Source: Patescibacteria group bacterium
GTDB lineage: Bacteria; Patescibacteriota; Minisyncoccia; Phycocordibacterales; Phycocordibacteraceae
DNA length: 64,000 nucleotides
Direction: 5' to 3'
Assembly (NCBI GenBank): GCA_040388985.1
Contig: JAZKAU010000003.1
Span: 24,557 to 88,556, forward strand
Part shown: positions 4,471-54,910 of the stretch, piece by piece
Layout of the letters: each line of letters starts with the position of its first letter
Position numbering within the stretch: the first letter of the stretch is position 1
Program-made: the position numbers and the translations under genes
Notes under the pieces: model-generated
Database searches by the model: none
Told to the model about the DNA's origin: nothing
What the model saw: the letters and a program-made list of their open reading frames with translations, nothing else

Positions 4471-4472
4471 CC

Positions 4473-12950: not shown

Positions 12951-12973
12951 CATATCTGCGACTAAGTGTAATG

Positions 12974-20648: not shown

Positions 20649-20989
20649 CCTTGGAAGGCTGCCACTCCAATAACGATAGGTGGCGCAATGAAAACCAGCA
20701 TTGACAATTCATAGGCAAGTGGAATACTTACATCATCTAGCAATAATATATTCCCTATATTTGAATCAGCTGCCGGATCGAGTGTTCCAGAAGAGTCTGT
20801 GGGTGGAGCATCCACTCCGTCCCCAGAATCTAAAGTAGAAGAAGTCCCGACTGTCGAACACATAATACGAGTTACCGACTCTCAGGGAAACTATATCGGC
20901 AATGCGAAGAGTCAGGCCGAAGTGAAGCAAATGATAGAGGCTCATATGACTGCAGTTCGAGAGAACGCGTAAAGAAAGATGGAAATAAG

Positions 20990-21018
20990 AAAAGGCCCGG
21001 GCTTCGCCCGGGCCTTTT
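20990..21018. terminator. Bidirectional rho-independent terminator
   Basis: aaaaggcccgggcttcgcccgggcctttt lies immediately downstream of the helicase gene, which is on the minus strand. Confidence 0.7.
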
Positions 21019-21032
21019 CTTATTTCTAAGTC

Positions 21033-23852
21033 TTACTTGAAAAGCTCAAGCAAACCGTCGTAGTCCGAAGGCTCCCCTTCCCGCCATGTCCCGGTCAGCA
21101 GCTCGCCCATCACTGCTTCGAGAGTCGCGAGCAGGTCTTCGCGCGTCTCGTCATCGAGCGGCACCGGATATTCCTTCACGCCTTCGGTACCGACCTGGAT
21201 GATGGCAGCGCCGGTAGGAGCGTGGCCGTTTGCGCGCAGGAGAAGGTCGTAGAAGGCCAGCTGGCGGGCGTATTTCTCGTCCTTGATATGGATGTCGCTC
21301 GAGGTCTTGAAGTCGATGATGCGCTCGCCGCCCTGCGTCTCGAACACGGCATCAATCTTCCCTTGCAGCTTTATGGACTCCCCCGCGAATTCGCGAGTGA
21401 GCGTGAAGACTTTCTCAATAGCTGCAGTCTCGGGTATGGCATCCAGCGCCAGATAACTCGCGAGGCTCTGACGGCTGTGTTCCACGATGCGCTCATAGGC
21501 GGCGTTGCGCGGCAGCAAGGAGCGCTTGAGGCATCCTTCGAGCGCGGCATAGGCTTTGGCATCAATCTTGGTCGAGAGGTATTCCGCAATACCTGCATGA
21601 ACGGCGGTACCAATGGTGGCCGCAGGCGACTCCGGCTCATGAAGCCGCAGGACACGCCGAGCGAAGAAGGTGGGCGGAGATTCCAGATACTCGTTAAATG
21701 CTGAAGGCGAGAGACCTTCTACCGTGAGGAATCGCTTCACGAGCGCGTTCACGGCAGGGAGAGGCTCTATCGTCGTGTGCAGGAGTGGCAATGGATCGAA
21801 GGAGGACGTGATAGCCGGTAAACCCTCCGGAATAAGCACGGACGGCGGCGTATCGCGTCCGTCGCCGTTCTCGGCGCTGTACGACAGAATGACGGAATCC
21901 TTCGCGCGCGTAAGCGCCACGTAGAAGAGCTTGGTCACGTCCTCAAGCGATCGGCTCTGGTCGACCGGTGAAGGTATCTTCGCCGGAAGTCCCCCTTTCT
22001 CCCAGGCGCGCGCCGTGAGGCCCACGATGAAGACATCCTTGAATTCCATCCCTTTGGCCTTATGCGCGGTAATGATGGTCACCTTCCCTTCTTCGGTCGT
22101 TACGCTCGTCTTCACGCTCTCAAGTCCGTGTTCATGCGCCTTCGTGAAGGCTTCGACGACCCGGGCGAAGCTCTGGCCGGGATCTCGCGCGACTATCTCC
22201 TCCAGGTGCATGAATACCCGGCGCAGGAGCTGCACGTCCTCGAAATGATCCGCGTGCGAGAGGACGTAGTCGCGCGCTCCTGTCTGCGCGAGCAGCTGCG
22301 ACAGGAGCGGGAGCGGAGCAGTTGCGAGCGCAGCGTTCTGGAGCTCGCGCAGCGAGGCCGCAAGTTCCGGATATCCGTTCTCAAGCGACGTCCATAGTTC
22401 CCGATCGCGATTTTTCAGAAGCAGGCTCGCCCGGTCCTCAAGGCTCATAGGCCACCAGGGCGCGAGCAGCGCCTCGCGCAGCGCCGCTATATCGAGCGGA
22501 TTGGCAACCGCGCGCATAAGCGCGAGCACGGAGCGCATGAAGGGGCGGCTTGAGAGCATCACGTCGCCGGCGCGCAGTATCGGAATTCCCATAGCTCCCA
22601 GATGCTCGGCGAAAAGATTCGCCGTCGCGTTGCGGCTTGAGATGATGGCTATCTCATGGGGTAGCGTGCCGTCCGCGATAAGCGCCTCTACGAGGCGCGC
22701 CACTTGGTCGCGCTCAGCGAGCGGATCGGGGGCGGTCAGGAGTTCTATCTTGGCCTCTCCATCGCGCGAGCTTGCGAGCGGCTGATGCTCTCCTGTGGAG
22801 GCCGGGACGGCTTGTATGAGCGTGTGTGAGGCGTCGAGGACGCCCTGGAGGGAGCGGTAACTCTGCGTCAGGTATACCAGCTCGGTTCGCGGATACTGCT
22901 CTATGAAGGTTCCGAAATGCGAGGAGTCGGCGCCTTGGAAGCGGTAGATGGCCTGTTTCTCATCCCCCACCACGAAGATGTTCGGATGCTCGTCGTAGGC
23001 CATGCAGTCGAGGAAGGCATGCTGCAGCGCATTGGCGTCCTGGTGCTCGTCGGCGAGCACATATTGATATTGCTCCTGCACGCTCGCGCGCAGATCAGCG
23101 TCCGCGCGCAGACCATCCACCGCGATACGTAGCACGTCCGCGAAGTCGTACACATCTCGCTTCTCCTTGAGCGCCTCGTACGCCTCTATGAGCCGCGCAG
23201 CCTCCTCGCCCTTCTGGAGTCGCTCAAGCTTCTTCGCGCCTTCGGGCTTGAAGTCCCCTTTCTTGCCGTACTTGCTATCGCGCGCGTAGTAGAGGCTCTC
23301 ATCAACTCGGATACGGTCTCCTTCAGCTTCGAGCCAGGCGCGGTAGTCAGAAAGGCTAATGCGCTCACGCAGCAGGTCGTCACGCAAGCGCGCGAGGTCG
23401 CGCAGATAGAAATACGGAGACTTTGCAGTACGCAGCGCGACTAAGTCTTCGGTCTCAAGCACCTCGCGCCAGAGCAGCGTACTCTCCACGTCCCCTGCCA
23501 GGCGCTTCCCGCGCGCCTCCGGGAATGAATCCGCATAAGTCGAGAGCAAGTGTTCGGCGAAGCCGTGGAAGGTCGCGATATAGACTTCGCGCGCTGCCGT
23601 CTCGCCGATAAGCGTGCCGAGCCGTTTACGGATGGTGCGCGCAGCCGACTCCGTGAAGGTGAGCGCGAGGATATTCGTCGCGTTCGCCTGCGTAAGGCGG
23701 AGAATGTTGGCGATACGTAGCGTGAGGATATGCGTCTTCCCGGTCCCGGGGCCCGCGATGACCATGACCGGCCCTTCCACCGTATCCACCGCCTTCTTCT
23801 GCGCCGGATTCAGCCTTTGGTATGCCTCGTCGAATGCCGTGGTGTCCTGCAT
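21033..23852 (-). CDS. UvrD/PcrA-family helicase fused to a C-terminal PD-(D/E)XK (RecB/AddA-like) nuclease
   Basis: Walker A VIAGPGTGKTH, helicase motifs (TFTESAA, YQYVLADEHQDAN, VVGDEKQAIYRFQGA) and a C-terminal IDAVFE...IIDFKTSS...QLAFYDLLL nuclease motif. Confidence 0.85.
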   Translation of the reverse strand: MQDTTAFDEAYQRLNPAQKKAVDTVEGPVMVIAGPGTGKTHILTLRIANILRLTQANATNILALTFTESAARTIRKRLGTLIGETAAREVYIATFHGFAEHLLSTYADSFPEARGKRLAGDVESTLLWREVLETEDLVALRTAKSPYFYLRDLARLRDDLLRERISLSDYRAWLEAEGDRIRVDESLYYARDSKYGKKGDFKPEGAKKLERLQKGEEAARLIEAYEALKEKRDVYDFADVLRIAVDGLRADADLRASVQEQYQYVLADEHQDANALQHAFLDCMAYDEHPNIFVVGDEKQAIYRFQGADSSHFGTFIEQYPRTELVYLTQSYRSLQGVLDASHTLIQAVPASTGEHQPLASSRDGEAKIELLTAPDPLAERDQVARLVEALIADGTLPHEIAIISSRNATANLFAEHLGAMGIPILRAGDVMLSSRPFMRSVLALMRAVANPLDIAALREALLAPWWPMSLEDRASLLLKNRDRELWTSLENGYPELAASLRELQNAALATAPLPLLSQLLAQTGARDYVLSHADHFEDVQLLRRVFMHLEEIVARDPGQSFARVVEAFTKAHEHGLESVKTSVTTEEGKVTIITAHKAKGMEFKDVFIVGLTARAWEKGGLPAKIPSPVDQSRSLEDVTKLFYVALTRAKDSVILSYSAENGDGRDTPPSVLIPEGLPAITSSFDPLPLLHTTIEPLPAVNALVKRFLTVEGLSPSAFNEYLESPPTFFARRVLRLHEPESPAATIGTAVHAGIAEYLSTKIDAKAYAALEGCLKRSLLPRNAAYERIVEHSRQSLASYLALDAIPETAAIEKVFTLTREFAGESIKLQGKIDAVFETQGGERIIDFKTSSDIHIKDEKYARQLAFYDLLLRANGHAPTGAAIIQVGTEGVKEYPVPLDDETREDLLATLEAVMGELLTGTWREGEPSDYDGLLELFK

Positions 23853-24807: not shown

Positions 24808-25362
24808 TCATCTATCACCACGAGAAGCGCCCTGCGAGGTTCCGTCCTCTCGGGGTTCTTTTCTTTTATAGGCAAGCTTTGGGTGTAGATCATTCATAAA
24901 GGCAAGGTAGCCTGATTCAAGACGCTTAAGCAATACAGAATATTTATATTGATTAGGAATCAATAATTTCCTGAGCTTCTTCTGTTCGACCAGGTATTTT
25001 ACTAAGCAGTGAAAATCACCATCGCCGGTTACTAGTACCGCCTGCCCGTAGTTAGGATATTCAATCATGGCATTAAGGACTAGCTCGGCATCTACGTTAC
25101 CCTTGGTGCTACCGTCCCGGTATCTGAGCGTCGGTTTAAATATACAGATAAACCCTGATTCTTGGAGCCTCGTATACAGATCAGCATTACCTTCTACGTA
25201 TCCTATAAACAAATAAGCCTTCTCAACGCCATATTTCTCAGTCAGATATATGCGAAAGCGACGCATATCCAGTTTCCAACCAAGAGCGCGAATGCTCAAA
25301 TATAGATTCTGACTATCGATAAATGCATAATTCTCCTTCTTCCTCGACATACGGTAAAGCAT
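24808..25362 (-). CDS. NYN-domain (LabA-like, PIN-fold) predicted RNase
   Basis: AFIDSQNLY ... NVDAELVLNAM ... VLVTGDGDF matches the NYN/COG1432 pattern. The local sequence is AT-rich. Confidence 0.65.
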   Translation of the reverse strand: MLYRMSRKKENYAFIDSQNLYLSIRALGWKLDMRRFRIYLTEKYGVEKAYLFIGYVEGNADLYTRLQESGFICIFKPTLRYRDGSTKGNVDAELVLNAMIEYPNYGQAVLVTGDGDFHCLVKYLVEQKKLRKLLIPNQYKYSVLLKRLESGYLAFMNDLHPKLAYKRKEPREDGTSQGASRGDR

Positions 25363-26296: not shown

Positions 26297-26716
26297 TCAA
26301 TCTTCTATTTCCAATAAGAAATTCTTTATCTTCTCGAAAGCCGCGAGCTTCTTCTTTTCAGTCAGCTCGTGCTCCCATACGCGCATGACTCGCCACCCGT
26401 TCCTTCTGAGACGTGCGAGTGTCCTTCGGTCACGCTTGATATTCGCCTCGATCTTGTCCTGCCAATAGACCTTGGGGAGCTTGTGCTTCCAATCCGGAAA
26501 ACGATATCCGTGCCAGAAATCTCCGTCTATGAAGATGGCGAGCTTCTTGCTCGGTACTGCTACGTCCGGACTTCCTGATACCCGCTTATAATGCCGTTGG
26601 AAATGTATCCTCTCCTTCCGCAGGTATCGGAACACCTTCATCTCCGGCTTCGTTCCTTTGGGCCGGATGCGAGACATTACTTCGCTCCTCTTCTCTTTCG
26701 TGAAGATATCAGCCAT
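26297..26716 (-). CDS. vsr: Very-short-patch repair endonuclease Vsr
   Basis: Vsr motifs MADIFTKEKRSEVMSRI and FIDGDFWHG, with a size near 139 aa. It overlaps the upstream C5-MTase gene by 8 nt, the classic dcm-vsr arrangement. Confidence 0.75.
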   Translation of the reverse strand: MADIFTKEKRSEVMSRIRPKGTKPEMKVFRYLRKERIHFQRHYKRVSGSPDVAVPSKKLAIFIDGDFWHGYRFPDWKHKLPKVYWQDKIEANIKRDRRTLARLRRNGWRVMRVWEHELTEKKKLAAFEKIKNFLLEIED

Positions 26717-27959
26717 CCGCTCTCTTGATGAGTTCCCTGCCAAGACGTTCGACTATGCCGACCACGAGCGCATTGCCCATGAAGAATGCACGCTGGTTAT
26801 CTGATGCTCCAGCGGTGTGGTTCTCGGGAAACATATTCAGCTTCTCGAGCTCGAGAGGGATGAGCCGGCGATAACGTCCTGAGCTAGTACGTATGACATG
26901 TTTGAAGCGTGACGCGCCGGATCCTCCCTCACCGGTAACGATGGTGCGCGACGGCTTATCGAGCGGATCGGGGAACGCCATCGATCCTTCCGAATAGTTA
27001 TATTTGAATCCATCCTTGCTCCTACGTTCTTCCGTCTTACCGCTTTTATGCCTTCTCCATTCCTCGAGCCTATCCTTAGGTATGAAATACTCTTCAGGGA
27101 TCTTGCTTTCAGGGACTACTATATGCTTCAGGAAGGTGCTTTCCCCTTCATAATTGGGCATGATCTTTACGGTCAAGACGTTTCCGTCTATCATGACCCC
27201 GGCATTGTGGAATATGCTGGCTTTGCTGTTCAGATTCAGCTTGGATTCGACTTCATTCGCGACAGGCAGCTGAATCGTATCTATGGAGCCGCCCAGAGGA
27301 TGAATCGGGAAGGCCTTCGGCATCACGCCTGCTTTCATTAGCCAGCCGAGAGCATCCTTCTTGATGGCTTGATACTGAGTGGTTCCTTTCTTATAGCCAA
27401 GGATATACACTCTGCGTCTGCGCTGCGGCATCCCGTAATCCGCAGCGTTTATCACTCTCCACTCGATCGCATAGCCGAGCTCGGCGAGCGAGGCGAGCAT
27501 GATGGCGAAGTCCCTTCCCCTCTTGGACACGGGAGATTTCAATAACCGGTCGACGTTCTCTAGCATAAGATATCTCGGCGCTTTCTTTCCTTTCTCTCGC
27601 AGGATCCGATATATCTCCCACCAGAGAACGCCTTTCTTGCCGACGAGTCCGGCCGCCTGACTCAAGGTCCGCGCTACGGAGTAATCCTGGCATGGGAAAC
27701 CTCCGACCAGGAGATCGTGATCAGGAATCTCATCGACAGGCACATCGGAGATATCAGTATTCGTGAATCTGCGCCTGGAGGACTGAGGTTCATGACCGAA
27801 TACGCGGCAATATGTCGTCCAGGCATGCTGGGAAGAATCCGGCTTACCCGGCTCCCATTGGTTGAACCAGACGGTATCGAAATCCTTCGAGGCTCGTTCG
27901 AAACCGACTCTGAAACCTCCGACTCCTGCGAACAGCTCAGCGACGCGCAATCTTTTCAT
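26709..27959 (-). CDS. dcm: DNA (cytosine-5)-methyltransferase
   Basis: Motif I ELFAGVGG, motif IV GGFPCQDYS and motif VI ENV. At 416 aa its size matches M.Sau3AI-type enzymes. Confidence 0.9.
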   Translation of the reverse strand: MKRLRVAELFAGVGGFRVGFERASKDFDTVWFNQWEPGKPDSSQHAWTTYCRVFGHEPQSSRRRFTNTDISDVPVDEIPDHDLLVGGFPCQDYSVARTLSQAAGLVGKKGVLWWEIYRILREKGKKAPRYLMLENVDRLLKSPVSKRGRDFAIMLASLAELGYAIEWRVINAADYGMPQRRRRVYILGYKKGTTQYQAIKKDALGWLMKAGVMPKAFPIHPLGGSIDTIQLPVANEVESKLNLNSKASIFHNAGVMIDGNVLTVKIMPNYEGESTFLKHIVVPESKIPEEYFIPKDRLEEWRRHKSGKTEERRSKDGFKYNYSEGSMAFPDPLDKPSRTIVTGEGGSGASRFKHVIRTSSGRYRRLIPLELEKLNMFPENHTAGASDNQRAFFMGNALVVGIVERLGRELIKRADG

Positions 27960-28004
27960 AACCCTATTCTATACAAGTATCCGGAATCGATCAAGCCCTT
28001 GCTG

Positions 28005-29423
28005 TCAGGCCTTCAGTACGGATTCTATATACTTCGCATTCAGCCAGAATGAACGCTTGATTTCCTGTGTCCCTTGCGGGGTCTCCTGCGTATCGCTGCT
28101 ATCTTTGGCATGAGGCCTGACATGAGCTACGGGACTGCCTGTAATCTTGGGCAGATCTCGATATCTTCCTTCCTCTATGCACCTGAGAGCAAGGTCGAAG
28201 ACACGTTCTGCTTCCGGAAAGTCTTCCGCCGGAAAGTTCCAGAACTTCACCTTTGACAGCCTTACCGCGCCCTCCGCTGTCTTCTGGAAAACGACGAACA
28301 GGAAGCGGCTCATTTCTAGTTCTGCATGGAAATCCGACATGATCTCTTCCTTCTGGTCATACCAGAGCTGAGTAATCAGATTCTTATAATCGAAAGCCGG
28401 GAATGATATTGATTCTCTCAGCGACCCGTCCGTCTCGAGCGTGACTACTCTCAGGGTCACATCGGCTTTCTCGAATTCCTCTATCTTATTCGACCCGGTG
28501 CCGGTAAGTATCCGGTTCGCCAGGAGTCGCTTGAAATTCTTAGGCCGGCTATCTGTCCTCCACCCCAGGATCTGCATGATTTCCGTATCGGACTTTCCTA
28601 TATACGGACCGAACTTATCCTCTACGACCTCATCGATGGTCATGTCATGCTTCTCTCCTCTATATATGGATTCCGCATCAGGTCTTGCGCCGAGCAGATT
28701 CCGCTGGATCAGATGATTCAGATAAGCCTGTTTCAAGGAGAATGCCCGAGGCTTCGCTGGAGTACGCGACATGGGCTGGTCGCGGACCACCCTGCTATTC
28801 CGAGCCTTCGTACAGGCGCCCAGGTAGAACGTATCCCCTTCAGAGAGCAGGTGCGCGTCGCCGCGGCGTATCTTATCGATGATGAATTGCCAATCCTTGC
28901 GAATCTGCTCGGCGTCCTGCTCTGATATATCTTCGAGGAGATCAAGGAGATGCACGAACTCGAATTCATAGTCGAGCACGCTCTGTCCCTTGTCCAGGTA
29001 CAGGTAGAACATGATCAGCAGGAGCCTGTTCTTCTCGAGGAACGAACTGGTCTCCCAGCGTTCGCTGATGACCTTGTCGTAGTCGATCATCGAGAACACG
29101 AGCCGTTCCTTGGCCACGTATCGCTTTGTCTTATGCCGCCTGAGCGGAGTCGACTTCAGCTCGATGCCGGCTAGCTTGAAATCGGCTTCTGCACGGCCAT
29201 TGTTAGCGATTCCGAATACATAGCGCTCTATGAGGTCCCCTAAGTAGCCTTTCCGGTTGGTGCCGTATCCGGCCAGCTTATCCTCTATCTCATCGAGCTC
29301 TTCTCGAGGAATGAACTCTTTCAGGGTCTTGTGCAAGGCACGGTTCGCGGCGGTGACGACTTCTTCCTCGGTTCTGTAGATAGTTTCAGGCATGGTATCT
29401 GATGCGGAATCAGTCATTTCCAA
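28005..29423 (-). CDS. Sau3AI/MutH-family type II restriction endonuclease (predicted GATC-specific)
   Basis: The N-terminal domain contains EADFKLAGIELKSTP, matching the MutH catalytic D..E.K block DFAALGVELKTIP. A second, degenerate MutH-like half resembles two-domain Sau3AI, and the 472 aa length is close to Sau3AI's 489. Confidence 0.7.
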   Translation of the reverse strand: MEMTDSASDTMPETIYRTEEEVVTAANRALHKTLKEFIPREELDEIEDKLAGYGTNRKGYLGDLIERYVFGIANNGRAEADFKLAGIELKSTPLRRHKTKRYVAKERLVFSMIDYDKVISERWETSSFLEKNRLLLIMFYLYLDKGQSVLDYEFEFVHLLDLLEDISEQDAEQIRKDWQFIIDKIRRGDAHLLSEGDTFYLGACTKARNSRVVRDQPMSRTPAKPRAFSLKQAYLNHLIQRNLLGARPDAESIYRGEKHDMTIDEVVEDKFGPYIGKSDTEIMQILGWRTDSRPKNFKRLLANRILTGTGSNKIEEFEKADVTLRVVTLETDGSLRESISFPAFDYKNLITQLWYDQKEEIMSDFHAELEMSRFLFVVFQKTAEGAVRLSKVKFWNFPAEDFPEAERVFDLALRCIEEGRYRDLPKITGSPVAHVRPHAKDSSDTQETPQGTQEIKRSFWLNAKYIESVLKA

Positions 29424-30066
29424 GGATACTCTTCCAGGAGCCTTTCGTCACTATCACATGGTCGATAACGGCTATATCGAGGATCCGTCCCGCTTGCACG
29501 AGTCTCTTGGTGACTTCCAGATCCGCAGCTGACGGCTCAGTATCTCCTGACGGATGATTGTGAGCGAATATGACTGACGAAGCGTGGCTGACTATGGATT
29601 GCTCGAATACCTCGCGCGGATGGACCAGGCTCTCGTTCAAGGTCCCTATCGACACCACGTCCCTACGTATCTCTTGCTCCCTGCTGTCCAGGTAGAAAAC
29701 CACGAAATGCTCCCTCTTGCTCTCGCGTATGTCCGACATCCTTTCCCAGACATCCTTCGCGGAGAGTAACACTGACGTCTTCTTATCCTTAAGTAATCTC
29801 CTTCCGAGCTCGAAACAAGCGACGATTCCGCTGGCTTTAGCTTTTCCTAGTCCGGGTATCTCACAGAGCTCAAGGAGGGTAGCTGTTCCAAGACCGATAT
29901 CCTTCCATCGCGCGAGCACTCTGCTTGATAGTTCGATTGCATTCGTGCCTTTCATGCCCGTACCGAGGAGGATCGCGAGCAACTCAGCATCCTTGAGCCT
30001 TTCCGGGCCATATCTCTCAAGCTTCTCGCGCGGTCGGTCCTTGCTATGAAACTCCTTTATCTTCAT
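29410..30066 (-). CDS. radC: RadC-like JAB/MPN-domain protein
   Basis: HhH region LLAILLGTG and JAMM motif HNHPSGDTEPSAAD. Confidence 0.8.
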   Translation of the reverse strand: MKIKEFHSKDRPREKLERYGPERLKDAELLAILLGTGMKGTNAIELSSRVLARWKDIGLGTATLLELCEIPGLGKAKASGIVACFELGRRLLKDKKTSVLLSAKDVWERMSDIRESKREHFVVFYLDSREQEIRRDVVSIGTLNESLVHPREVFEQSIVSHASSVIFAHNHPSGDTEPSAADLEVTKRLVQAGRILDIAVIDHVIVTKGSWKSILGND

Positions 30067-30075
30067 TGCTCAGGA

Positions 30076-30918
30076 TTAGACCGAGGATGCGTAATTCCGT
30101 ATGGCCAATTCGATGATGCTAGCGTCAGCTCCTACGCTTGCACCGAGGCTGCGCGGAGCGAGTATCCTGTGATACTCGAATCCAGGATATAAGTTCCTCA
30201 CCTTCTTTATGTCGTTATTACTCAAGAGCACCTTTCCGCCTCTTGCCTGCAGAGATCTCACGAAATCCGCGAGGTTGATCCTGTCCATTTCTGAGAATGT
30301 CTCAGGAGTATATTGAACGAAGCTTGTCCTTTTTATCGGATCGTAGCAAGGATCAAGATAGATAAAATCTCCTGACGATATATGAGGTACGATCTCCCTA
30401 TAATCTTGATGCACTATATCTACTCCCTGCAAGAGCCTGCTGGCTTCCAATATGACCTCTCTTGAGAAGACTTCCGCTTTCTTATATCGTCCATAAGGGA
30501 CATTGAATTCATTCTTAGAGTTCACTCTGAATAGACCGCTGTAGCAAGTCTTGTTCATATATATGAAGGCTGCGGCTCGCTCGACTCCTTTAAGGGCTTT
30601 CAGGTTGAATTCCTCCCTCGTCTGATAATAAAATTCTTCCGAATCTCTCTTCTTGAACCTTGACAGAGCGGTTAGCAATCCCTTCGGATTATCTCGTACG
30701 GCTTGATAAGTGAGCACGAGATCAGCATTAGCATCCGATATCAGGGAGAAATCCGGATTGTATTTCTGCTTTACGTAGAAGAAGACAGATCCGCCTCCGA
30801 GAAAAGGCTCGAAGTATCTTTCTATGGTCTCCGGAAAGAGAGTGTCAAGCGTATCGAGAATCCTGCGTTTTCCGCCTGCCCACTTCAGGAATGTCGGTAT
30901 GTTTAAGGTGTTCTTCAT
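30076..30918 (-). CDS. dam: Dam-family N6-adenine DNA methyltransferase
   Basis: The protein is collinear with E. coli Dam, matching FLKWAGGK, EPFLGGGSVF, YYQTREEFN, MNKTCYSGLFRVNSKNEFNVPYGRYKK and a DPCY variant of DPPY. Confidence 0.85.
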   Translation of the reverse strand: MKNTLNIPTFLKWAGGKRRILDTLDTLFPETIERYFEPFLGGGSVFFYVKQKYNPDFSLISDANADLVLTYQAVRDNPKGLLTALSRFKKRDSEEFYYQTREEFNLKALKGVERAAAFIYMNKTCYSGLFRVNSKNEFNVPYGRYKKAEVFSREVILEASRLLQGVDIVHQDYREIVPHISSGDFIYLDPCYDPIKRTSFVQYTPETFSEMDRINLADFVRSLQARGGKVLLSNNDIKKVRNLYPGFEYHRILAPRSLGASVGADASIIELAIRNYASSV

Positions 30919-32045
30919 CTTGTGCTTAATCCGGATTTCTCCATCAGATCTTTATACAGATCTGATTGGCCCTGTCCTCCCGGTATATATCTGCTCTTCG
31001 TAAAGTCATCCTGCTTCAAGTCTATCCTAGCGAAGACCTGTTGAAAATCCTCTTTGCTTGCAACCTTGCCAGGAGTATCGAATGAAAGATAGACGTCTCT
31101 CATGAATCTCATGAGAGCCACGAAACCTGTAGATTTATTCAATATCATCTGTACTCTCACCTCATTCCAAGCATCGGGCCACTTCAGCGACACCGCAGAG
31201 AAATAATTCCATACAATCTGAGCTATCTCCGCATCCTTTTCCTCGAGGAAGAGGTTCCTGAAAATCAGCTTGCTCGCCGAATCCCCTTCCGCTCTCTTCG
31301 GTACTCCTCCTCTCTTGTATATATCCCTATCAGTCATCGGATTCAGAGACAGGTACTTTAATAAGTATTCGACAAAAGTCGCTTGAGTTATCGTCTCTCT
31401 CTCTCCATCCTCTGCCACCCCCAGAATCTTGACTTTTCCTTCAAAAGGGCTCCCTTCTTTCTCGTTCAGGGCGCGTACGATCTGATGTGCGGTCTTCTGC
31501 GGACTTCTTGAAGTCGCGAAGGCGAATAAGTCCGCCACCAGCGACTTATTCACCTTCGTCTGAGATTTGTTTATCGTTGCAAACAATATCGCCTGGTCTT
31601 CAAGATCAATGTCGACGAAAATAGCGACGTTTGTCTCAAAACTAGAGGGTCGAGGACTGGCTTTTTCGAATCCAGCGGCTCGATGTTGTCCGTCGAGTAT
31701 CTTCGCAATCTCTCCATCCCTTCTAATCCGCATCCTCGAGCTCTTCTCGTCGTATTGAACGTTCGTGGAAGAGACAGAGAGTATTATCGCAGTCGGGAAA
31801 GCCGCGTCGACCAGATTCACGTATCTTGCAATCTCCTTGACCCTGGAGGCTGAGAGAGGTCTCTGTATACCGATGTATTTCTCAATCTCAGTCTCATTCC
31901 TCTCTCTATGACGGATGTCGCTATAGGAAATATCTACCAGATCTTGCATCTGCATTACGCCCATGTAAAAATCGCCTATAGGCTGCCTTACCTTGATAGA
32001 CTGGAATTCCACCCACTCATCCTTTAATGAAATTTTCATAGGCAT
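30915..32045 (-). CDS. DGQHR-domain protein (DndB-like, ParB/Srx fold)
   Basis: An exact ILDGQHRAAG motif together with an upstream IGIQRPLSASRVKEIARYV block. Its ATGA start overlaps the Dam gene, and its stop overlaps the downstream membrane gene. Confidence 0.75.
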   Translation of the reverse strand: MPMKISLKDEWVEFQSIKVRQPIGDFYMGVMQMQDLVDISYSDIRHRERNETEIEKYIGIQRPLSASRVKEIARYVNLVDAAFPTAIILSVSSTNVQYDEKSSRMRIRRDGEIAKILDGQHRAAGFEKASPRPSSFETNVAIFVDIDLEDQAILFATINKSQTKVNKSLVADLFAFATSRSPQKTAHQIVRALNEKEGSPFEGKVKILGVAEDGERETITQATFVEYLLKYLSLNPMTDRDIYKRGGVPKRAEGDSASKLIFRNLFLEEKDAEIAQIVWNYFSAVSLKWPDAWNEVRVQMILNKSTGFVALMRFMRDVYLSFDTPGKVASKEDFQQVFARIDLKQDDFTKSRYIPGGQGQSDLYKDLMEKSGLSTR

Positions 32046-32551
32046 TATCTTAGACTTTTCTTAATACCGTCGATGCTGCGCCTTTCTTCTTCCGCTACAT
32101 CGATTCCCTTGCTTAGCCTATCTATATAGTTAGAGAAATAATGTGCAAAAAGAGCGATTAACAGGAAGACGAGTGACGAATAGAATATGACAGCCTTATC
32201 CGGATTAATAAGCCCATCTATCGGAATCGAAAGCGTAGTGGCTAATATGGCATATAGGACCGAGGAGAGTATCAGGAAGCATATGCAAAGCCAGAACAGG
32301 ACCGAGGAGAAATCAAAATTCTTTTTCTTTGTAGCGTAAAGCAGATATGCTGAATTTATGTAGAAAGCTGCAGCATAAAGATAAAACTCTCCATGTGACC
32401 AGAATACGGTCCAGCCATGCCATTGAGACAAGATTAAGGAGATAGCTAATCCTATAATAAGTGGCAATAATCCGCCTATCACCGTCACGCTAAAGAGCAT
32501 GCTGGTTTCTTTGAAAATATTTGATCTGAATGTCAATGCCGAAAGAAACAT
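32045..32551 (-). CDS. Small 4-TM membrane protein, first gene of the DGQHR-Dam module
   Basis: 168 aa with 4 hydrophobic helices and a charged C-terminal tail, DVAEEERRSIDGIKKSLR. Its TAATG stop overlaps the start of the DGQHR gene. Confidence 0.45.
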   Translation of the reverse strand: MFLSALTFRSNIFKETSMLFSVTVIGGLLPLIIGLAISLILSQWHGWTVFWSHGEFYLYAAAFYINSAYLLYATKKKNFDFSSVLFWLCICFLILSSVLYAILATTLSIPIDGLINPDKAVIFYSSLVFLLIALFAHYFSNYIDRLSKGIDVAEEERRSIDGIKKSLR

Positions 32552-35865: not shown

Positions 35866-35966
35866 TTCCTCTTATTTTACCTCGTATGTACCGGTTCTGG
35901 CAGCTACTTGACAATATAGGTCATAGATGCTATGTTAATTATGGCAACAATAGCAGGAAGACGATA

Positions 35967-36200
35967 ATGAACATGTCCCCTCGTCAGCAGGTTCAGCTCC
36001 TGATCGGCTGGATCATCATCACCTCAATCGCGCTGGCCACCGCTCTCTGGTTGGGGCTGTTCTTCAGCCTTCCCAAGGAGACCGGCTTCGTGCTCGCCGT
36101 GATTGCGTCCGGGCTCGTCGGAATCGCCGGCCTGGCTCATGTGGGCGCGAACGCGTTCATCCGTCAGCTCGGCAAGGGGCTCGTCCCCGACCGCGCCTGA
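35967..36200 (+). CDS. Small membrane protein (77 aa)
   Basis: The start is placed at the internal ATG, with AGGAAG about 7 nt upstream. The product has 2 TM helices, and terminator hairpins lie downstream at 36234..36263 and 36276..36312. Confidence 0.35.
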   Translation: MNMSPRQQVQLLIGWIIITSIALATALWLGLFFSLPKETGFVLAVIASGLVGIAGLAHVGANAFIRQLGKGLVPDRA

Positions 36201-36317
36201 TCGGCAAGCTTCCCCCAGCTGCCGATCCAGGAAGAGGCCGTCCACCGTGACGGCCTCTTTTTACTTTATATACGAGCAAAGCCTGCCCCATTCGGGGGCA
36301 GGCTTTGCTTTATTGAA

Positions 36318-36418
36318 TTTTCCGTCGGGAGCGAGGGCTTGAGAATAAAAGCGGTTCAGGATTCCCAAGTGCAGGGTAATCCCGCAACGGCGCTTTTATT
36401 CTTAACCCGAGTGACTCG

Positions 36419-36425
<7 letters not shown>
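36318..36425. repeat. Copy 1 of an approximately 110-nt palindromic repeat element
   Basis: The core ccgtcgggagcgagggcttgagaataaaagcggttcaggatt.ccaagtgcag...cgcttttattctta has 13-bp terminal inverted repeats, agaataaaagcg and cgcttttattct. It is about 85% identical to the reverse complement of 53641..53753. Confidence 0.7.
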
Positions 36426-40195
<3,770 letters not shown>

Positions 40196-45166: not shown

Positions 45167-45230
45167 GGAAGAGATTAAGAAGATACTTTGGCGTTAAGAA
45201 AAAGGCCTCGCCTGCGGCGAGGCCTTTTTC

Positions 45231-45533
45231 TTAACTTAAATCATTTAATACTTCGTCGAGCGGCTTATCGCTTTCCATGCGCTTGCCGCCGAGAGGCTCG
45301 TTGATCTTCAGGTTCACGCGCGCATTGTGCTTCATGCCGACGACGCGCAGAAGGGTGCGAAGCGCCTTGGCGATGTTGCCATCGCGGCCGATTATTTTTC
45401 CCATATCTTCGGGAGCGACTGAGAGCGTGAGGAGTACGCCCATCTCGTCTACTGAGCGTACGACGACGACCGCATCTGTCTTATCGACGAGCGCTTTTAC
45501 GACGTATTCGAGAAATTCGTGATCGGATTCCAT
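45231..45533 (-). CDS. KH-domain RNA-binding protein (YlqC/UPF0109)
   Basis: GKIIGRDGNIAKALRTLL, a KH GxxG motif. It sits between rpsP and trmD. Confidence 0.75.
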   Translation of the reverse strand: MESDHEFLEYVVKALVDKTDAVVVVRSVDEMGVLLTLSVAPEDMGKIIGRDGNIAKALRTLLRVVGMKHNARVNLKINEPLGGKRMESDKPLDEVLNDLS

Positions 45534-48495: not shown

Positions 48496-48627
48496 ATGGC
48501 TGAAGATATTGATACGGAAGATCAGGGAACGCCGCCTGAGCTGCCTCAAGAAGAGGGACAGGTGGCCAAGGAGGGGCTAGCGGAAGATGATGAGGAGAAT
48601 GAGGATAAGGATGATGAGGAGAAGTAA
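48496..48627 (+). CDS. Candidate small acidic protein (43 aa)
   Basis: MAEDIDTEDQGTPPELPQEEGQVAKEGLAEDDEENEDKDDEEK. It has no clear SD sequence and is followed by a strong terminator. Confidence 0.2.
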   Translation: MAEDIDTEDQGTPPELPQEEGQVAKEGLAEDDEENEDKDDEEK

Positions 48628-48642
48628 TCTGGACTGATAGAT

Positions 48643-48682
48643 AAAATAGATACGCCGCGCGGAAGCGCGGCGTATCTATTTT
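48643..48682. terminator. Bidirectional terminator between rnr and smc
   Basis: aaatagatacgccgcgcggaagcgcggcgtatctatttt. Confidence 0.75.
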
Positions 48683-50931
48683 GCGACTTGTACGGCTTCG
48701 TCGAACTTTATAGAAAGGAGCTTGCTAATGCCATCGCCGCCCATAGTGACGCCGTAGAGGATACCCGCGCGACTCATGGTCTCGCGATTATGGGAGATGA
48801 CGATGAGCTGGGACTTCTTCGCTAGCTCTTCGATCATGTCGCCATAGCGACGGGAGTTGGCCTCGTCGAGCGCAGCGTCGGTTTCGTCGAGTATGAGGAA
48901 CGGCGGCGGATTCACCTGGCTCATGGCGAAGATGAGCGCGATGGAGGTCAACGCGCGCTCGCCGCCTGAGAGCTGCATCAAGGACTGCACGCGCTTCTTG
49001 GGCAGTGCCACCGATATCTCGATACCTGCCTTGCCTGGCTTGCGGATACGGCTCTCCTCGTATGAATCTTCGTCATCTTCGTCCTCATTCTCCTCGATAT
49101 CCTCGTCCGCGCGTCCAGCAGTCGGCAGGTCCTCCAGCACGAGCTTCGCATTCCCTCCCCCGAACATGAGGCTGAAGAATTCGCTGAATGATACATTCAC
49201 CTTCGTCAGGCCTTCGGTGAATGTCTTGTTGAGTTCCGTATCAAGATCGGTGATAAGCTCGCGCAGGCCGGTCGACGACTTCGTAAGGTCCTCGAGTTCG
49301 CGGGCGAGGAATTCCTCGCGGGCGACCGCCTCGTCGTATTCCTTCTGCACGTCTTCCCCGCCCCCGCCCGCCTCCTCGACCCGTATCTTGAGGCGCTCGA
49401 GTCCTCGTTTGCGGTCTTCCTGGAGACTGCGGTCCTCGGTCGGGAGCGCAGTCAGAGGCGCGTACGACAGAGCGCTCGCGCCAGCGAGCGCGAGCGCTTC
49501 GGCGCGTTCGCGCTCAAGCGACTGGCCGGCATTCTCGAGTTCGCGGAGCCTGGCGTCTAGCCGCACGACGGCCGCTTCAGCGGCAGCCTTGGACTCTGCG
49601 AGTCCAAGCACCCGGTGCCGCTCTTCGCGGCCGGTCTCGTCATAGGCCATGCGCGCTTCGCGCGCGCGAAGCAGTGCCTCGCGATTCTCGTCTATATCGC
49701 GGGCGAGCTGCGCTTCCTTCTCGAGGAAGCTTGCGCGCTCGTTCTCGAGCGTGTGCACGAGCTGTTCCTCGTCTGCGAGATAGTCGTCGTTCGGCGTGCC
49801 GAATCGCTCGAAGAAGGCGACCACGACGCTCTTGAGCGACTCTAGGGCGGCGCGCAGCGCCGCCGGTTCTGATTCTTCTGACCGTGCCGCTTCGCGCTCT
49901 ACTTCCGCGCGCAGCGTATCGAGATCCTCACGCGGAATCTTCACGTATGGGTCATGCGCGACCGCGACGCTGCGCTTCTTCGCCCCTTCGAGCGCGCCTT
50001 CCACGCGCCCGAGCTCGCGCGCGAGCGTACCGCGCTCCTGACCGAGCCTGTCGAGCGTGCGCTCGATCGTCCGTATACGCTCAGCATGCTTGGCACCCTC
50101 CACATCGCTCGTCGCGCGCTCGTCGAAGGCGGCAAGTTCGCGTGCGGCTGCGGCCAAGCGCTCGTTCGCCCCGGCACGCTCGCTGGTCGCCTTCTTCGTT
50201 TCCGTATCGATATAGAATTCCTCGATGGCAAAATAGGTTCTGCACACCTCTGCCAATTCCTGTGCAAGAGATGCCGCGCGTTCGATGCGTTCGACCTGCT
50301 TCTTGAGGAATCGGATATGAGGCGCAATCTCGCGGCGCAGACTTTCCACCTCGCGCATGTTGCTGTCCGTCTTCTCGAGCTTACGCTCGGCTTCTTGCTT
50401 CTTGAATTCGAAGGATTTGAGGCCGAGCGCGTCCTCAAGCATAGCGCGGCGCTCGCGCGGATGCGCAAGCAGGATGCGGTCGGCTTCGCCTTGGGAGATG
50501 ATGTGGTGTCCTGTCTCGCCGATGTTGGCGGACGAAAGAAGTTCCTGCACGTCGCGCAGGCGGACTTTTGAGCCATTCACGAGATATTCGCTTGCGCCGT
50601 CGCGGAAGACCGCGCGCTCGATGGATACTTCGTCGAAGTCGAGCTTCGGGAAGATTCGCGCTCCTCCTCGCGGCTGATTATCGAAGACGATGGCCACTGC
50701 CGCGCGTGAAGCTCGCGGATTCGTATTAGACCCGCTCCAGATAAGGTCCTCGCTGCGCTTCCCGCGCATGCTCTTCATGGATTGCTCGCCGAGCGCGAAG
50801 CGGAAGGCTTCGGCGACATTGCTCTTTCCGGAGCCATTGGGCCCCACTATCGCGGTGGTCGCATTACTGAAGTCGAGCACGGTCTTACGCGCGAATGACT
50901 TGAATCCCACTATCTCGAGCCGTTTCAACAT
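48676..50931 (-). CDS. smc: Short SMC-family chromosome segregation ATPase
   Basis: N-terminal Walker A GPNGSGKSN, a long coiled-coil and a C-terminal signature LSGGERALTSIALIFA...LILDETDAALD. The start is at internal MLKRLEIVGFKSF. The protein is only about 752 aa and no hinge motif was recognised. Confidence 0.75.
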   Translation of the reverse strand: MLKRLEIVGFKSFARKTVLDFSNATTAIVGPNGSGKSNVAEAFRFALGEQSMKSMRGKRSEDLIWSGSNTNPRASRAAVAIVFDNQPRGGARIFPKLDFDEVSIERAVFRDGASEYLVNGSKVRLRDVQELLSSANIGETGHHIISQGEADRILLAHPRERRAMLEDALGLKSFEFKKQEAERKLEKTDSNMREVESLRREIAPHIRFLKKQVERIERAASLAQELAEVCRTYFAIEEFYIDTETKKATSERAGANERLAAAARELAAFDERATSDVEGAKHAERIRTIERTLDRLGQERGTLARELGRVEGALEGAKKRSVAVAHDPYVKIPREDLDTLRAEVEREAARSEESEPAALRAALESLKSVVVAFFERFGTPNDDYLADEEQLVHTLENERASFLEKEAQLARDIDENREALLRAREARMAYDETGREERHRVLGLAESKAAAEAAVVRLDARLRELENAGQSLERERAEALALAGASALSYAPLTALPTEDRSLQEDRKRGLERLKIRVEEAGGGGEDVQKEYDEAVAREEFLARELEDLTKSSTGLRELITDLDTELNKTFTEGLTKVNVSFSEFFSLMFGGGNAKLVLEDLPTAGRADEDIEENEDEDDEDSYEESRIRKPGKAGIEISVALPKKRVQSLMQLSGGERALTSIALIFAMSQVNPPPFLILDETDAALDEANSRRYGDMIEELAKKSQLIVISHNRETMSRAGILYGVTMGGDGISKLLSIKFDEAVQVAK

Positions 50932-50974: not shown

Positions 50975-51661
50975 TTACCACCCGGTCTTCTGAAGCGCGT
51001 TCTGCGCAGCTGCCTGTTCTGCTTCTTGTTTAGATTGACCCTCGCCGGTCGCAATCTGTTCCTTACCGAGGAAGACGCCTACCGTGAAGCGCTTATCGTG
51101 ATCCGGGCCTTTCTCCTGCATGGTCGTGTAGGTGGGAGTGGTACCGCGCTTGTCCTGAGCAAGCTCCTGGAACTTGCTCTTGGCGTCCTGCCAGCTTCTC
51201 TGCTGGACGACGGTGTCGATCTTCCCGTAGAGATGCTGCGCAAGGAAGGCTTCGGCAGCGTCGTATCCCTGATCGAGATAGAGAGCGCCGAGAAGCGCCT
51301 CGAAGGCGTTCGCAAGGATGATCTGGCGCGCGCGGCCGGTATCCTTTGACTCGCCTTTTGAGAGCAGCAGCATGGAGTTGAGTCCGAGCACCTCGGCAGT
51401 ATCGGCGAGCGAATAGGTATTCACGAGCGCGGCGCGGAAAGCCGTGAGCTCTCCCTCTGGCTTGTTCGGATATTTATCAAAAAGGAAGCGCGTGACCGCA
51501 AGCTCAAGCACGGCATCGCCGAGAAACTCAAGACGTTCGTTATGCGCCTTCGAACTCTTGTTCTCGTTCAGATACGAACGATGCGTCAGCGCCTCTTCCA
51601 GGAGCGCCATATTCTTGAACGTGAGGCCGAGCGTGCGCGCGTGCGTATGAAAGTCGGTCAT
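50975..51661 (-). CDS. rnc: Ribonuclease III
   Basis: Signature ERLEFLGDAVLE and a C-terminal dsRBD. It sits upstream of smc. Confidence 0.9.
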   Translation of the reverse strand: MTDFHTHARTLGLTFKNMALLEEALTHRSYLNENKSSKAHNERLEFLGDAVLELAVTRFLFDKYPNKPEGELTAFRAALVNTYSLADTAEVLGLNSMLLLSKGESKDTGRARQIILANAFEALLGALYLDQGYDAAEAFLAQHLYGKIDTVVQQRSWQDAKSKFQELAQDKRGTTPTYTTMQEKGPDHDKRFTVGVFLGKEQIATGEGQSKQEAEQAAAQNALQKTGW

Positions 51662-52652: not shown

Positions 52653-53579
52653 TTAAAAACGAGCTTCGAGGGGCTGCGTCGCTCCTGCGCGCGCCTTATC
52701 GAGGAGCTTCTGCACGGCGCTGGTCACGATAGGCAGCATATCGTCATAGAAATTGAGCTCGAGGATGTCGGGCAAGCGGAACCATTTCGCGTCGTCGAGT
52801 CCCCCGCTCTTCTTGAGCGTGATGGTCTCGAACTCCGCATGTACGAGGAAGAACCAGACATGCTTGCGGACCTTTCCCTTCTCGGGATGCGATGCGACGT
52901 ATTCGTTCTCGCCGACCATCTCTTCTACCTTGCCTATAAGCCCGAGCTCTTCCTGCACGACGCGCGCGACGCCTTCCTCAGGCGAAGGGTCGGTCTCGAT
53001 ATGGCCTTTAGAGAGCGTCCAGCGGCCGAAGACGTCGTGCACGAGAGCAAGATAGTATTGGCCCTGGTGTTCAGCGTAGACGATGGCGCCGCCTAATTTC
53101 TCGAGTGGCAGATCCTCGCGCTTCACGCGCTCCTTCTTCCCGACCTCGTCCTTGCCGGGCTCGCCCATCTCCTTATAGACGGCTCCGAGGACACCGTTGA
53201 CGAAGCGGCCACTCGAGTCGCCGCCGAAGATCTTGGCAAGCTCGATGGCTTCGTTTATGGCGACTTTCGCAGGAACCTGGGTGCGGTCAGCGAACAATAA
53301 TTCAAAAAGCCCGATGCGCAGAATGTTGCGATCAACCGGCGCGATCTTATCGAGCGGCCAGTCAGGGGCGGCTTTCGTGATGACGAGGTCTAGGTCAGGA
53401 CGCTTAGCGAGTACGCCCGTAATGAGAGCTTCCATGAAGGCCTTGTCCGAATCTTCCCCGCCGAACTCCGCGATATTGCGGGCGAGCATATCGGGCACCG
53501 CCGATTCTTCACTAGCTGAAGTATCCCACTCGAAGAGCGTCTGGAGGACTACGGAACGTGCAAGGTGGCGGTTGGCCAT
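52653..53579 (-). CDS. nusB: NusB transcription antitermination factor fused to a C-terminal NUDIX hydrolase domain
   Basis: The N-terminal 140 aa are NusB-like (ARSVVLQTLFEW, FVNGVLGAV). The C-terminus has a Nudix-box-like stretch KGHIETDPSPEEGVARVVQEELGL that aligns to GX5EX7REUXEEXGU but carries RV in place of RE. Confidence 0.8.
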   Translation of the reverse strand: MANRHLARSVVLQTLFEWDTSASEESAVPDMLARNIAEFGGEDSDKAFMEALITGVLAKRPDLDLVITKAAPDWPLDKIAPVDRNILRIGLFELLFADRTQVPAKVAINEAIELAKIFGGDSSGRFVNGVLGAVYKEMGEPGKDEVGKKERVKREDLPLEKLGGAIVYAEHQGQYYLALVHDVFGRWTLSKGHIETDPSPEEGVARVVQEELGLIGKVEEMVGENEYVASHPEKGKVRKHVWFFLVHAEFETITLKKSGGLDDAKWFRLPDILELNFYDDMLPIVTSAVQKLLDKARAGATQPLEARF

Positions 53580-53640: not shown

Positions 53641-53753
53641 TGTGCATAACGAGTCGCTCGGACCTAAGAATAAAAGCGCCGTTCCGCATAGGAATGCTGC
53701 ACTTGGCAATCCTGAACCGCTTTTATTCTCAAGCCCTCGCTCCCGACGGGTGA
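53641..53753. repeat. Copy 2 of the approximately 110-nt palindromic repeat element, in inverted orientation
   Basis: Its reverse complement aligns to 36318..36425 with a variable central approximately 15 nt. Confidence 0.7.
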
Positions 53754-53804
53754 GAGGTTAGCGTGTTTATGTAGTGTTTAGGTGACGATATAGATTCTGA
53801 GACC

Positions 53805-54323
53805 TTATGCCTTGTAACGACTTTGCCAAGCCTCTAATTCAGTAAAAATTGAGTCTGTGCTATTCTCTGGCTTACGCTGAAGAATGGCATTTGCATTTCG
53901 CATGCAGTATTGGACCTCATCCATGTTATTTTCTTCCGTGTAGTATTTAAAACTATCCAGGATATCGACCGCTTTCACTACAAGAGCATCTTCTCCATTC
54001 TCGGCACAACGCTTGATAAGCTCTTCTGTCCTACTGGGCTCATCTGAAATCGAATCGTCTTTGGTGCAGGCACGAACGAGCCTGAGCACAGTATCTCCAA
54101 ATCCATCGGTTAGTTCTTTCTCTGTCACCTCGGTATCCTCAAGAATGTCGTGCAGTACTCCTGCCAAGACCATGTCCCGTGAATAGCCCTTTTCATACAA
54201 ATATACGCCTACCCTAATTCCATGAAATAGCACGGGCTTTCGGGTCCCTTCATGAGATATGGGCATTACTTGGGAAAGCAAGCGAATTGCTTTTTCAAAT
54301 TCAATATTGAGAGATTGCTTCAT
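53805..54323 (-). CDS. HD-domain protein resembling a small alarmone ((p)ppGpp) hydrolase
   Basis: SpoT/Mesh1-like HD motif HGIRVG...AGVLHDILEDT. The gene is AT-rich. Confidence 0.65.
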   Translation of the reverse strand: MKQSLNIEFEKAIRLLSQVMPISHEGTRKPVLFHGIRVGVYLYEKGYSRDMVLAGVLHDILEDTEVTEKELTDGFGDTVLRLVRACTKDDSISDEPSRTEELIKRCAENGEDALVVKAVDILDSFKYYTEENNMDEVQYCMRNANAILQRKPENSTDSIFTELEAWQSRYKA

Positions 54324-54541
54324 ACACCAATTTAACCATGAAAGTCCCGAGCATCGCTCCAGATTGCTTGAAGTAATTGAAATCCGAGTCTAACGAAAAC
54401 CGCGCCCTAATGGGCGCGGTTTTCGTGGCGAAGGAAAATGGCTTTAGATGCGAGGCGCGGGCAGGCCGCTGAGTGAGCCGTACTAAACGTACGGTGAGCG
54501 AAGCGGACGGGACCCGCAACAAAGCAGATGAAGCTATTTTG

Positions 54542-54910
54542 CTAGACTCCGCCGCCGAAACCGGAACGGCTCTTGGCCTTCCCGAGCGTCATGCGTCCGA
54601 TGAGTCCCTGCTTCTTCTCAGTCGCGTTGATCTCCTTCTCTGCGTGGACAGGTTCCTTATATCCTTCAGCGTGCTCGTGGATGTGCTCCTTCTTATGCTT
54701 TGCCTTGGTCTTCTCTTTGTCGGCCTTCGCCTTCATTTCCTTCTTAGGAAGGATCTGCTTGCCGCGATACATGCCGGTGGTCTCGTCCAGGCGATGTGGA
54801 AGGCGGAGCGCACCGCTATCCTTATCGGTAACGATGGAAGCCGCCGAGAGCGCGTGGTGGCTGCGGCGATTCTTAGTATGGGAACTGGTGTGGCGCATTC
54901 GTACTGACAT
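54542..54910 (-). CDS. Hypothetical Lys/His-rich protein
   Basis: The minus-strand ORF has protein-like composition, and the terminator hairpin cgaaaaccgcgccctaatgggcgcggttttcg lies at 54386..54422 on the same strand. Overlapping plus-strand ORFs look spurious. Confidence 0.35.

Follow-up and report, generated by a model that had tools for sequence, protein, structure and literature searches.

Hairpin-forming intergenic insertions beside rpoC and nusB in a Patescibacteria genome: a small repeat family, possibly REP/MITE-like

The 64-kb stretch of DNA analysed here (the window) carries two copies of a hairpin repeat in opposite orientations, each in the intergenic DNA beside a core gene. Copy 1 occupies 36322–36417, with its GAGCGA-bearing strand on the plus strand, and abuts the stop codon of rpoC (36419–40195, minus strand). 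The 553-nt spacer between rpoC and dnaG that holds it also contains a small hydrophobic open reading frame (ORF) 5′ of copy 1 (35886–36200, plus strand, likely start near 35965), which is convergent with rpoC, and, between this ORF and the repeat, two canonical intrinsic terminators on the plus strand (36229–36262 and 36274–36310). The small-ORF unit comprises its own promoter-like site and two terminators; the ORF matched no Pfam family and has no homologue in the rpoC–dnaG spacers of relatives. Copy 2 (53651–53749, minus strand) lies between the stop codon of a gene for a small HD hydrolase directly 5′ of it (Pfam HD_4; 53805–54323, minus strand) and the upstream region of a nusB–NUDIX fusion gene (52653–53579, minus strand), which is 71 nt downstream of the copy. 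The HD_4 gene is lineage-specific, is absent from the slot between L32 and nusB in relatives, and has a GC content of 43.7%, against approximately 57–59% in its neighbours. The best match to RpoC was 87% identical, and the named relatives are Patescibacteria/Paceibacterota metagenome-assembled genomes. GCA_040384165.1 contains short contigs of the same strain, which is also represented in the Logan assembly of SRR26324622. A tRNA/tmRNA scan of the window returned no match.

Comparison with orthologous loci showed that both copies are insertions, since the element is lacking from the rpoC–dnaG spacers of four related loci (L036–L039), where an ordinary terminator directly follows rpoC, and from the L32–nusB slots of six relatives (L041–L046), which are either empty or occupied by a 156-amino acid ORF or an FAD oxidoreductase. 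In all six of these relatives, the nusB-upstream block GTTATRCACA begins exactly where copy 2 ends, at GTTATGCACA, and the limits given above for the two copies follow from such sharp boundaries at native sequence. The native flank of copy 1, GTTACGC (36418–36424, plus strand), contains the rpoC stop codon (36419–36421, TAA on the minus strand), while that of copy 2, GTTATGC (53644–53650, minus strand), is the start of the nusB-upstream block. These flanks are identical at six of seven positions and can be written GTTAYGC, a match with a calculated chance probability of approximately 0.001, or approximately 0.005 if the first G is disregarded. The C-terminus of RpoC is full length in comparison with relatives, so the TTA at 36419–36421 is native and a truncation of rpoC by the insertion was rejected. 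An invertible 17-kb segment between the inverted copies was likewise rejected, as the order rpoB–rpoC–dnaG–rpoD is the same as in relatives. The Logan assembly breaks inside copy 2, where one contig ends (L002, ~53719) and another starts (L040, ~53694); assemblers break at repeats, so the hairpin repeat explains these short-read breaks and may fragment other assemblies of the lineage.

Several further features of these loci were recorded. The HD_4 block (53750–54395) is a sharp low-GC island, with 37–49% GC in most 100-nt windows and around 60% on either side, and CGTTA stands at both ends of the HD_4 block plus element. Within the L32–HD_4 spacer, positions 54435–54545 are ~78–80% identical, in the same orientation, to 58825–58935, which lies 4.4 kb away inside dnaE (the coding region of the DNA polymerase III alpha subunit); this stretch of about 110 nt may be the scar of a local duplication or rearrangement beside the L32–nusB slot. 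The NusB–NUDIX fusion itself is conserved at 81–92% identity in more than 100 related Patescibacteria proteins. Among the related rpoC–dnaG spacers, those of L037 (13751–14133), L038 (9545–9918) and L039 comprise ~380 nt of non-coding DNA, and the L038 and L039 spacers contain a stretch resembling a tRNA T-arm and acceptor (GGTTCGAGTCCCTCTGGTGGCTA) that had no convincing Rfam match and may represent an undescribed small RNA. Other accessory islands in the window, several of them low in GC, have no adjoining hairpin element (26297–32551, 4234–4976 and 24808–25362); one is a restriction/defence cluster (Vsr, C5 methylase, MutH-like, RadC, Dam methylase, DndB-like and a 168-amino acid protein of unknown function), and the others feature a PIN-domain gene with a small upstream ORF and an NYN-domain gene. 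Near the end of the window, a large ORF with no Pfam domain (61651–63999) probably encodes a repeat-containing surface protein; it carries 38-nt repeats spaced 96 nt apart and 92% identical (63311–63444), with GAGCAGGGGCTG in tandem nearby.

The first-pass annotation of this DNA had reported a palindromic element of about 85% identity in two opposite orientations, and both copies are present where it placed them, sharing the identical blocks that it quoted. Alignment with MAFFT and BLAST gave 86–87% identity over ~100–105 nt (86.7% across 105 aligned positions with BLAST), a repeat search identified 53-nt arms (36322–36374 and 53697–53749) that are 98% complementary, with 52 of 53 bases matching, and the covariance model scored copies 1 and 2 at 112.6 and 122.3 bits, respectively. 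Each copy is a ~100-nt imperfect palindrome that matches its own reverse complement at 70–74% over 76–80 nt in BLAST. In copy 1, an inverted-repeat search placed the left inner-stem arm AGAATAAAAGCG, on the A-tract side, at 36342–36353 and the right arm CGCTTTTATTCT, on the T-tract side, at 36391–36402; the equivalent 12-nt inverted repeats of copy 2 pair 53667–53678 with 53718–53729. These arms had been described as 13-bp terminal inverted repeats, which is not what they are, as they measure 12 nt and lie internally, with ~20 conserved nucleotides outside each. The variable centre of ~15 nt that was assigned to the element had to be redefined in a similar way: the arms are spaced 37–39 nt apart, and it is ~15–19 nt of that interval that differ between the copies (36375–36389 in copy 1). 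The end sequence taacgagtc is indeed shared, but its first four bases are native flank outside the element, consisting in copy 1 of the rpoC stop codon plus one base and in copy 2 of the start of the nusB-upstream block that element-free relatives also possess.

Outside the inner arms, the left family motif GAGCGAGGGCT (36329–36339, plus strand) provides the GA/GC/GA internal loops and the first part of the long stem, and the right family motif consists of CCCGAGTG followed by ACTC (36406–36417, plus strand), as defined by alignment and folding. The CTCG that serves as the outer-stem partner of copy 1 reaches one base past the element, to the flanking base G36418. The same analyses delimited the variable apex (36375–36389), where the small apical hairpins of copies 1 and 2 occupy different registers. 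Complementarity of the arms begins at GGGCT.GAGAAT and continues inwards, whereas the outermost 6 nt are a direct rather than an inverted repeat, with GAGCGA 5′ and GAGCG 3′ of the palindrome in the same direction. Tandem G-A pairs are possible on the GAGCGA strand; the opposite strand would have C/U mismatches.

Within the window, the pattern GAGAATAAAAGCG-N20–50-CGCTTTTATTCT has two sites, which are copies 1 and 2, with none expected in 100 shuffles, and the four occurrences of the 12-mer AGAATAAAAGCG are divided equally between them. No further copy was detected in the 64 kb by BLAST or by a covariance model run with filters off, which matched copies 1 and 2 on either strand and otherwise only ordinary terminators. 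This first model was built from copies 1 and 2, and it identified a third, diverged copy on an overlapping contig, L048, at 6702–6813 (28 bits; E ~2e-5, with 4e-5 over 154 kb and 1e-7 locally). The contig derives from the same strain, being 99.98% identical to the window over a 4.85-kb overlap (megablast), and places copy 3 ~1.9 kb past the right edge of the window and ~12 kb from copy 2. It lies between divergently oriented genes for a sortase and a CARDB-domain protein, ending 22 nt before the called CARDB start, so that the three copies occupy three kinds of intergenic context, between convergent, tandem and divergent gene pairs. BLAST of L047 and L048, which add 8.3 kb, found no close copy, and copy 3 was seen by the covariance model only; the count is thus three in 72.4 kb of the strain (window plus L047/L048), with element lengths of 95–112 nt. 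The exact 11-mer GAGCGAGGGCT occurs at three sites in the examined DNA of the strain, one in each copy (36329, 53742 on the minus strand and L048 6709), and copy 3 also shares GAGAAT...ATTCT and CCCGAGCG with copies 1 and 2. It has a longer apex and is without the A/T tract, the GTTAYGC flank and the TAAC flank. None of the three copies is bordered by a target-site duplication.

All three copies adopt a common fold, in which an outer stem of 4–5 bp is followed by a GA loop, a G-C/C-G step, a GA/GA loop, a long stem that begins GGGCU.GAGAAU in every case, and a variable apex; the GA/GC/GA internal-loop motif, GAGCGAGGGCU ... CCCGAGCG, is present in each. Sequence within this framework has changed considerably. 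The inner stem reads CAGAGAATGTGT/ACACATTCTCTG in copy 3 and TGAGAATAAAAGCG/CGCTTTTATTCTTA in copies 1 and 2, and the outer stem reads UACGU/GCGUG in copy 3 and CGGG/CUCG in the other two. In the three-copy alignment, 98.7% of cells are paired and nine of the 26 long-stem pairs are altered on both sides, figures that derive from three sequences in an alignment fitted to the structure, where a DNA palindrome would keep its pairing by construction. None of 500 column shuffles matched the observed values for paired cells, double-changed pairs or covariation score, and controls with a slid register gave between zero and two double-changed pairs, compared with the nine observed; with three sequences, a structured RNA and a DNA palindrome cannot be told apart statistically.

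Folding of copies 1 and 2, which had been proposed as a check on the element, showed that both strands are more stable than shuffled sequences as RNA (z −2.5 to −4.4) and that the copies are similarly stable as DNA (z −2.8 to −5.0). As RNA, copy 1 reached −43.4 kcal/mol (z −4.0), while copy 2 reached −46.1 kcal/mol on its minus strand versus −35.6 kcal/mol on its plus strand. The GAGCGA strand gave the lower energy than the opposite strand throughout, at −41.4/−39.3 (copy 1), −45.4/−30.4 (copy 2) and −63.5/−54.1 kcal/mol (copy 3), and has 10 G-U pairs versus 4 on the opposite strand, an asymmetry that is not significant. This hints that the single-stranded form of one strand, whether DNA or RNA, may matter.

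The inner stem of copies 1 and 2 resembles the terminators of this genome, which are ordinarily compact, perfect palindromes with an A-tract, a GC stem and a T-tract, such as AAATAAGAAAAGGCCCGGGC...GCCCGGGCCTTTTCTTATTT at 20968–21038. These perfect palindromes are unusually long (20968–21038, 45182–45249, 48625–48698, 61574–61643 and 12905–12970), with extended A and T tracts paired on either side of a GC-rich stem, and look bidirectional. Weak matches to the covariance model within the window (48625, 20968, 45182 and others) were rejected as family members because they are ordinary terminators of this kind. With AGAATAAAAGCG and CGCTTTTATTCT as their arms, copies 1 and 2 have the same A-tract ... 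T-tract layout as local bidirectional terminators (for example, 20968–21038 and 61574–61643), and a hairpin followed by UUUUAUUCU is read on both strands. However, the local terminators are compact GC-rich hairpins with loops of 3–4 nt, whereas the element has an irregular interior of 37–57 nt and ~20 conserved nucleotides beyond each tract, and a T tract is missing from copy 3 altogether. A terminator scan did not call copies 1 and 2, owing to their 37–39-nt interiors, and found no canonical terminator besides the element on the sense strand of rpoC. If transcribed, copies 1 and 2 would probably also stop or insulate transcription, after rpoC and between HD_4 and nusB, respectively. Such a side effect is plausible given the UUUUAUUCU layout, the lack of another terminator for rpoC and the position of copy 2 between a foreign gene and the nusB promoter region. 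Termination cannot define the family, as copy 3 is without a T tract, and the suggestion in the first-pass annotation of a conserved terminator is weakened accordingly by the absence of the entire A/T tract from that copy.

Searches for relatives were made in a range of collections. A search of Rfam, another of the checks originally proposed, matched no family: the whole window yielded nothing at gathering thresholds, and at E ≤ 10 around copy 1 nearly all matches fell on the neighbouring terminators, with a single match spanning the element (TD-1, 28.9 bits) that is far below its gathering score. Across the GTDB one-per-species genomes, the pattern GAATAAAAGCG-N20–50-CGCTTTTATTC returned 32 loci, all of which were rejected as single, unrelated terminator-like hairpins that resembled the element in the pattern alone, and the only match to GGGCTTGAGAATAAAAGCGG in JGI metagenomes was a chance match inside an unrelated coding region. 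Both patterns predate the discovery of copy 3 and needed the A-tract stem of the subfamily represented by copies 1 and 2, so members like copy 3 would be missed by these scans. Viral contigs gave no match to a two-arm pattern; the family motif was present at 42 viral loci, all of which lacked a matching inner palindrome and scored below significance with the model. There was no match in plasmids or phages (blastn), nor in ~150 kb from nine related loci (BLAST and covariance model). A concatenated six-frame translation of the element, intended to find spurious ORFs called across other copies, matched nothing at E ≤ 10 among 5.8 billion predicted proteins. By these sequence comparisons, the hairpin family appears to have no detectable relatives in the collections searched, which does not establish its absence elsewhere. 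Pfam analysis detected no transposase, Y1/HUH enzyme, RAYT or integrase in 62 of the 64 window ORFs of at least 70 amino acids and no mobilising enzyme in the five ORFs around copy 3 on L048, where precomputed gene calls were used for the remaining ORFs. No description of REP- or MITE-like repeats in Patescibacteria was found in the literature searched, nor any paper that mentions the accession of the source assembly.

Intergenic repeats that form hairpins are well known, and the most likely explanation, to which we give an even chance, is that the small family of 95–112-bp non-coding insertions seen here, defined by one long imperfect hairpin, is a lineage-restricted selfish repeat of REP/MITE type. 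The first-pass annotation had listed a MITE or REP-like repeat among its options, and had regarded similarity confined to two loci, or a hairpin devoid of structure-preserving changes, as grounds to abandon its element; the presence of a diverged third copy and the maintenance of the hairpin through compensatory changes, within the limits of a structure-fitted alignment of three sequences, instead support a repeat family. Such a repeat would spread via a single-stranded hairpin intermediate, mobilised by an enzyme whose gene lies in another part of the genome, and would survive in intergenic DNA only. Copies 1 and 2 would be recent products of one subfamily that inserted beside the same native heptamer, GTTAYGC, and any terminator activity would be incidental and limited to this subfamily. 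Against a mobile repeat are the small number of members known in the 72.4 kb, the lack of true terminal inverted repeats and of a variable target-site duplication, the absence of a mobilising enzyme from the scanned ORFs and of relatives from the collections searched (the large scans being blind to members like copy 3), and the fact that a selected RNA would explain the covarying stems and the better-folding strand just as well.

The main rival to this reading is accordingly a selected, cis-acting RNA hairpin transcribed from the GAGCGA strand, whose long stem with two tandem G-A loops could serve as a terminator or insulator, a site for RNase III or protein binding, or a 3′-end stabiliser of neighbouring genes; we consider this possible, if somewhat unlikely. 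It would account for the compensatory changes seen in the outer as well as the inner stem, although a DNA palindrome preserves pairing by its nature, and for the better folding of the GAGCGA strand in three of three copies, although its excess of G-U pairs falls short of significance. Conservation of the purine-rich GA/GA loop motif is limited to one strand, and an RNase III gene is annotated in the window (50975–51661). A role at gene ends would fit copies 1 and 2, which carry the hairpin and UUUUAUUCU in both orientations as bidirectional terminators do, as well as the sense strand of rpoC, which has no other canonical terminator where relatives have one directly after the gene. However, the orthologous genes of relatives manage without the element, the GAGCGA strand of copy 1 lies downstream of two strong terminators, and copy 3 is without a U tract and is situated between divergent genes with no promoter detected upstream of it. 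No Rfam family was matched above its gathering score, even in the search at E ≤ 10.

A non-mobile origin, in which copies 1 and 2 arose by a one-off local duplication or gene conversion and copy 3 is a hairpin of separate origin with a coincidental resemblance to them, is unlikely. It is compatible with there being just two close copies, with the lack of matches in the public collections searched and with the lack of a mobilising enzyme nearby. Chance resemblance is difficult to reconcile with an E value of ~2e-5 to 1e-7 under a model built without copy 3, or with the exact 11-mer, loop motif and architecture that copy 3 has in common with copies 1 and 2, while a local duplication does not readily explain their sharp boundaries at native sequence and their similar native flanks.

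Still less probable, in our estimation, is a recombination system that has yet to be described in Patescibacteria, acting on single-stranded DNA, which would recognise its sites through the strand-specific hairpin and the two tandem G-A loops within it. This system could place accessory genes, namely the HD hydrolase gene and the small hydrophobic-protein ORF, beside essential operons at GTTAYGC-like sites, by analogy with insertion of an integron attC site at a secondary site, except that an unknown enzyme would act on sites of a different architecture.

A related and minor alternative is that the element is itself an attC-like site at the 3′ end of gene cassettes, one consisting of the small ORF with copy 1 and the other of HD_4 with copy 2; a site-specific recombinase would have inserted each cassette as a whole at the G|TT of GTTRRRY-like sites beside core genes. 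GTTRRRY is the consensus of the integron core site R′, and RYYYAAC that of R″. Like integron attC sites, including solitary ones, which are imperfect palindromes of 57–141 nt with a variable centre and strand-specific folding, the element is ~100 nt long and varies at its centre. Copies 1 and 2 are each located 3′ of a lineage-specific ORF, in the same relative orientation, an argument from two cases. These copies are followed by an R′-like G|TTAYGC (six of seven positions matching the consensus), the 5′ junction of the HD_4 block, GTTAGAC (54394–54388), matches it perfectly, the L32–nusB slot holds different accessory genes among relatives, and CGTTA bounds the low-GC block on both sides, although this repeat has a chance probability of ~5% given the free choice of boundaries. 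We judge this the least probable of the readings considered, as an attC site pairs RYYYAAC with GTTRRRY in a conserved R box whereas the outer stem of the element varies, there is no R″ partner upstream of copy 1 or at copy 3 and only a five-of-seven candidate 16 nt away at copy 2, copy 3 is neither 3′ of a gene nor at a GTT junction, the small-ORF unit brings a promoter-like site and two terminators of its own, the copies are solitary rather than arrayed, and no tyrosine recombinase or other integrase was found among the scanned window ORFs.

Patescibacteria (CPR) genomes are small and streamlined, and hairpin repeats positioned against the rpoC stop codon and the nusB promoter indicate that selfish or regulatory repeats persist in them. 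The covarying stems and fixed GAGCGA...GAGCG loop motif provide a concrete search model for other CPR genomes, and, if the link to accessory genes holds, the element would suggest that Patescibacteria acquire genes by a new route.

Among known systems, the Correia (Neisseria), ERIC/IRU (enterobacterial) and RUP/BOX (pneumococcal) elements are, like the family described here, intergenic imperfect palindromes, 100–150 bp in length, that often lie in co-transcribed DNA and vary in presence between relatives. These elements can act as terminators, promoters or RNase III targets. They occur in high copy number with recognisable terminal inverted repeats and, in most cases, a target-site duplication, which is TA for Correia, whereas no variable duplication accompanies the element and its outermost stem covaries instead of being conserved; the copy-specific target-site duplication that characterises MITEs was likewise absent from all three copies. 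PATEs derived from IS200/IS605 elements also generate no duplication, have a short specific sequence on one side, comparable to the RTAAC located 5′ of copies 1 and 2, and depend on a single-stranded hairpin, as is proposed for the element. They differ in having separate left-end and right-end hairpins and a constant target, while the element forms one hairpin overall and copy 3 is without TAAC. REP sequences are shorter (20–40 nt), begin with a GTAG-type tetranucleotide and exist in tens to hundreds of copies mobilised by RAYT (TnpA-REP) proteins, whereas the element is 95–112 nt long, carries its GAGCGA motif on both sides and is known from three copies in 72.4 kb, with no RAYT or other Y1 transposase in the window. 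REP/BIME elements located at the 3′ ends of genes affect termination or mRNA stability. In common with them, the element is an intergenic, strand-asymmetric imperfect palindrome that has a short conserved motif at the foot of its stem, is often found at the 3′ ends of genes and is conserved in structure more than in sequence.
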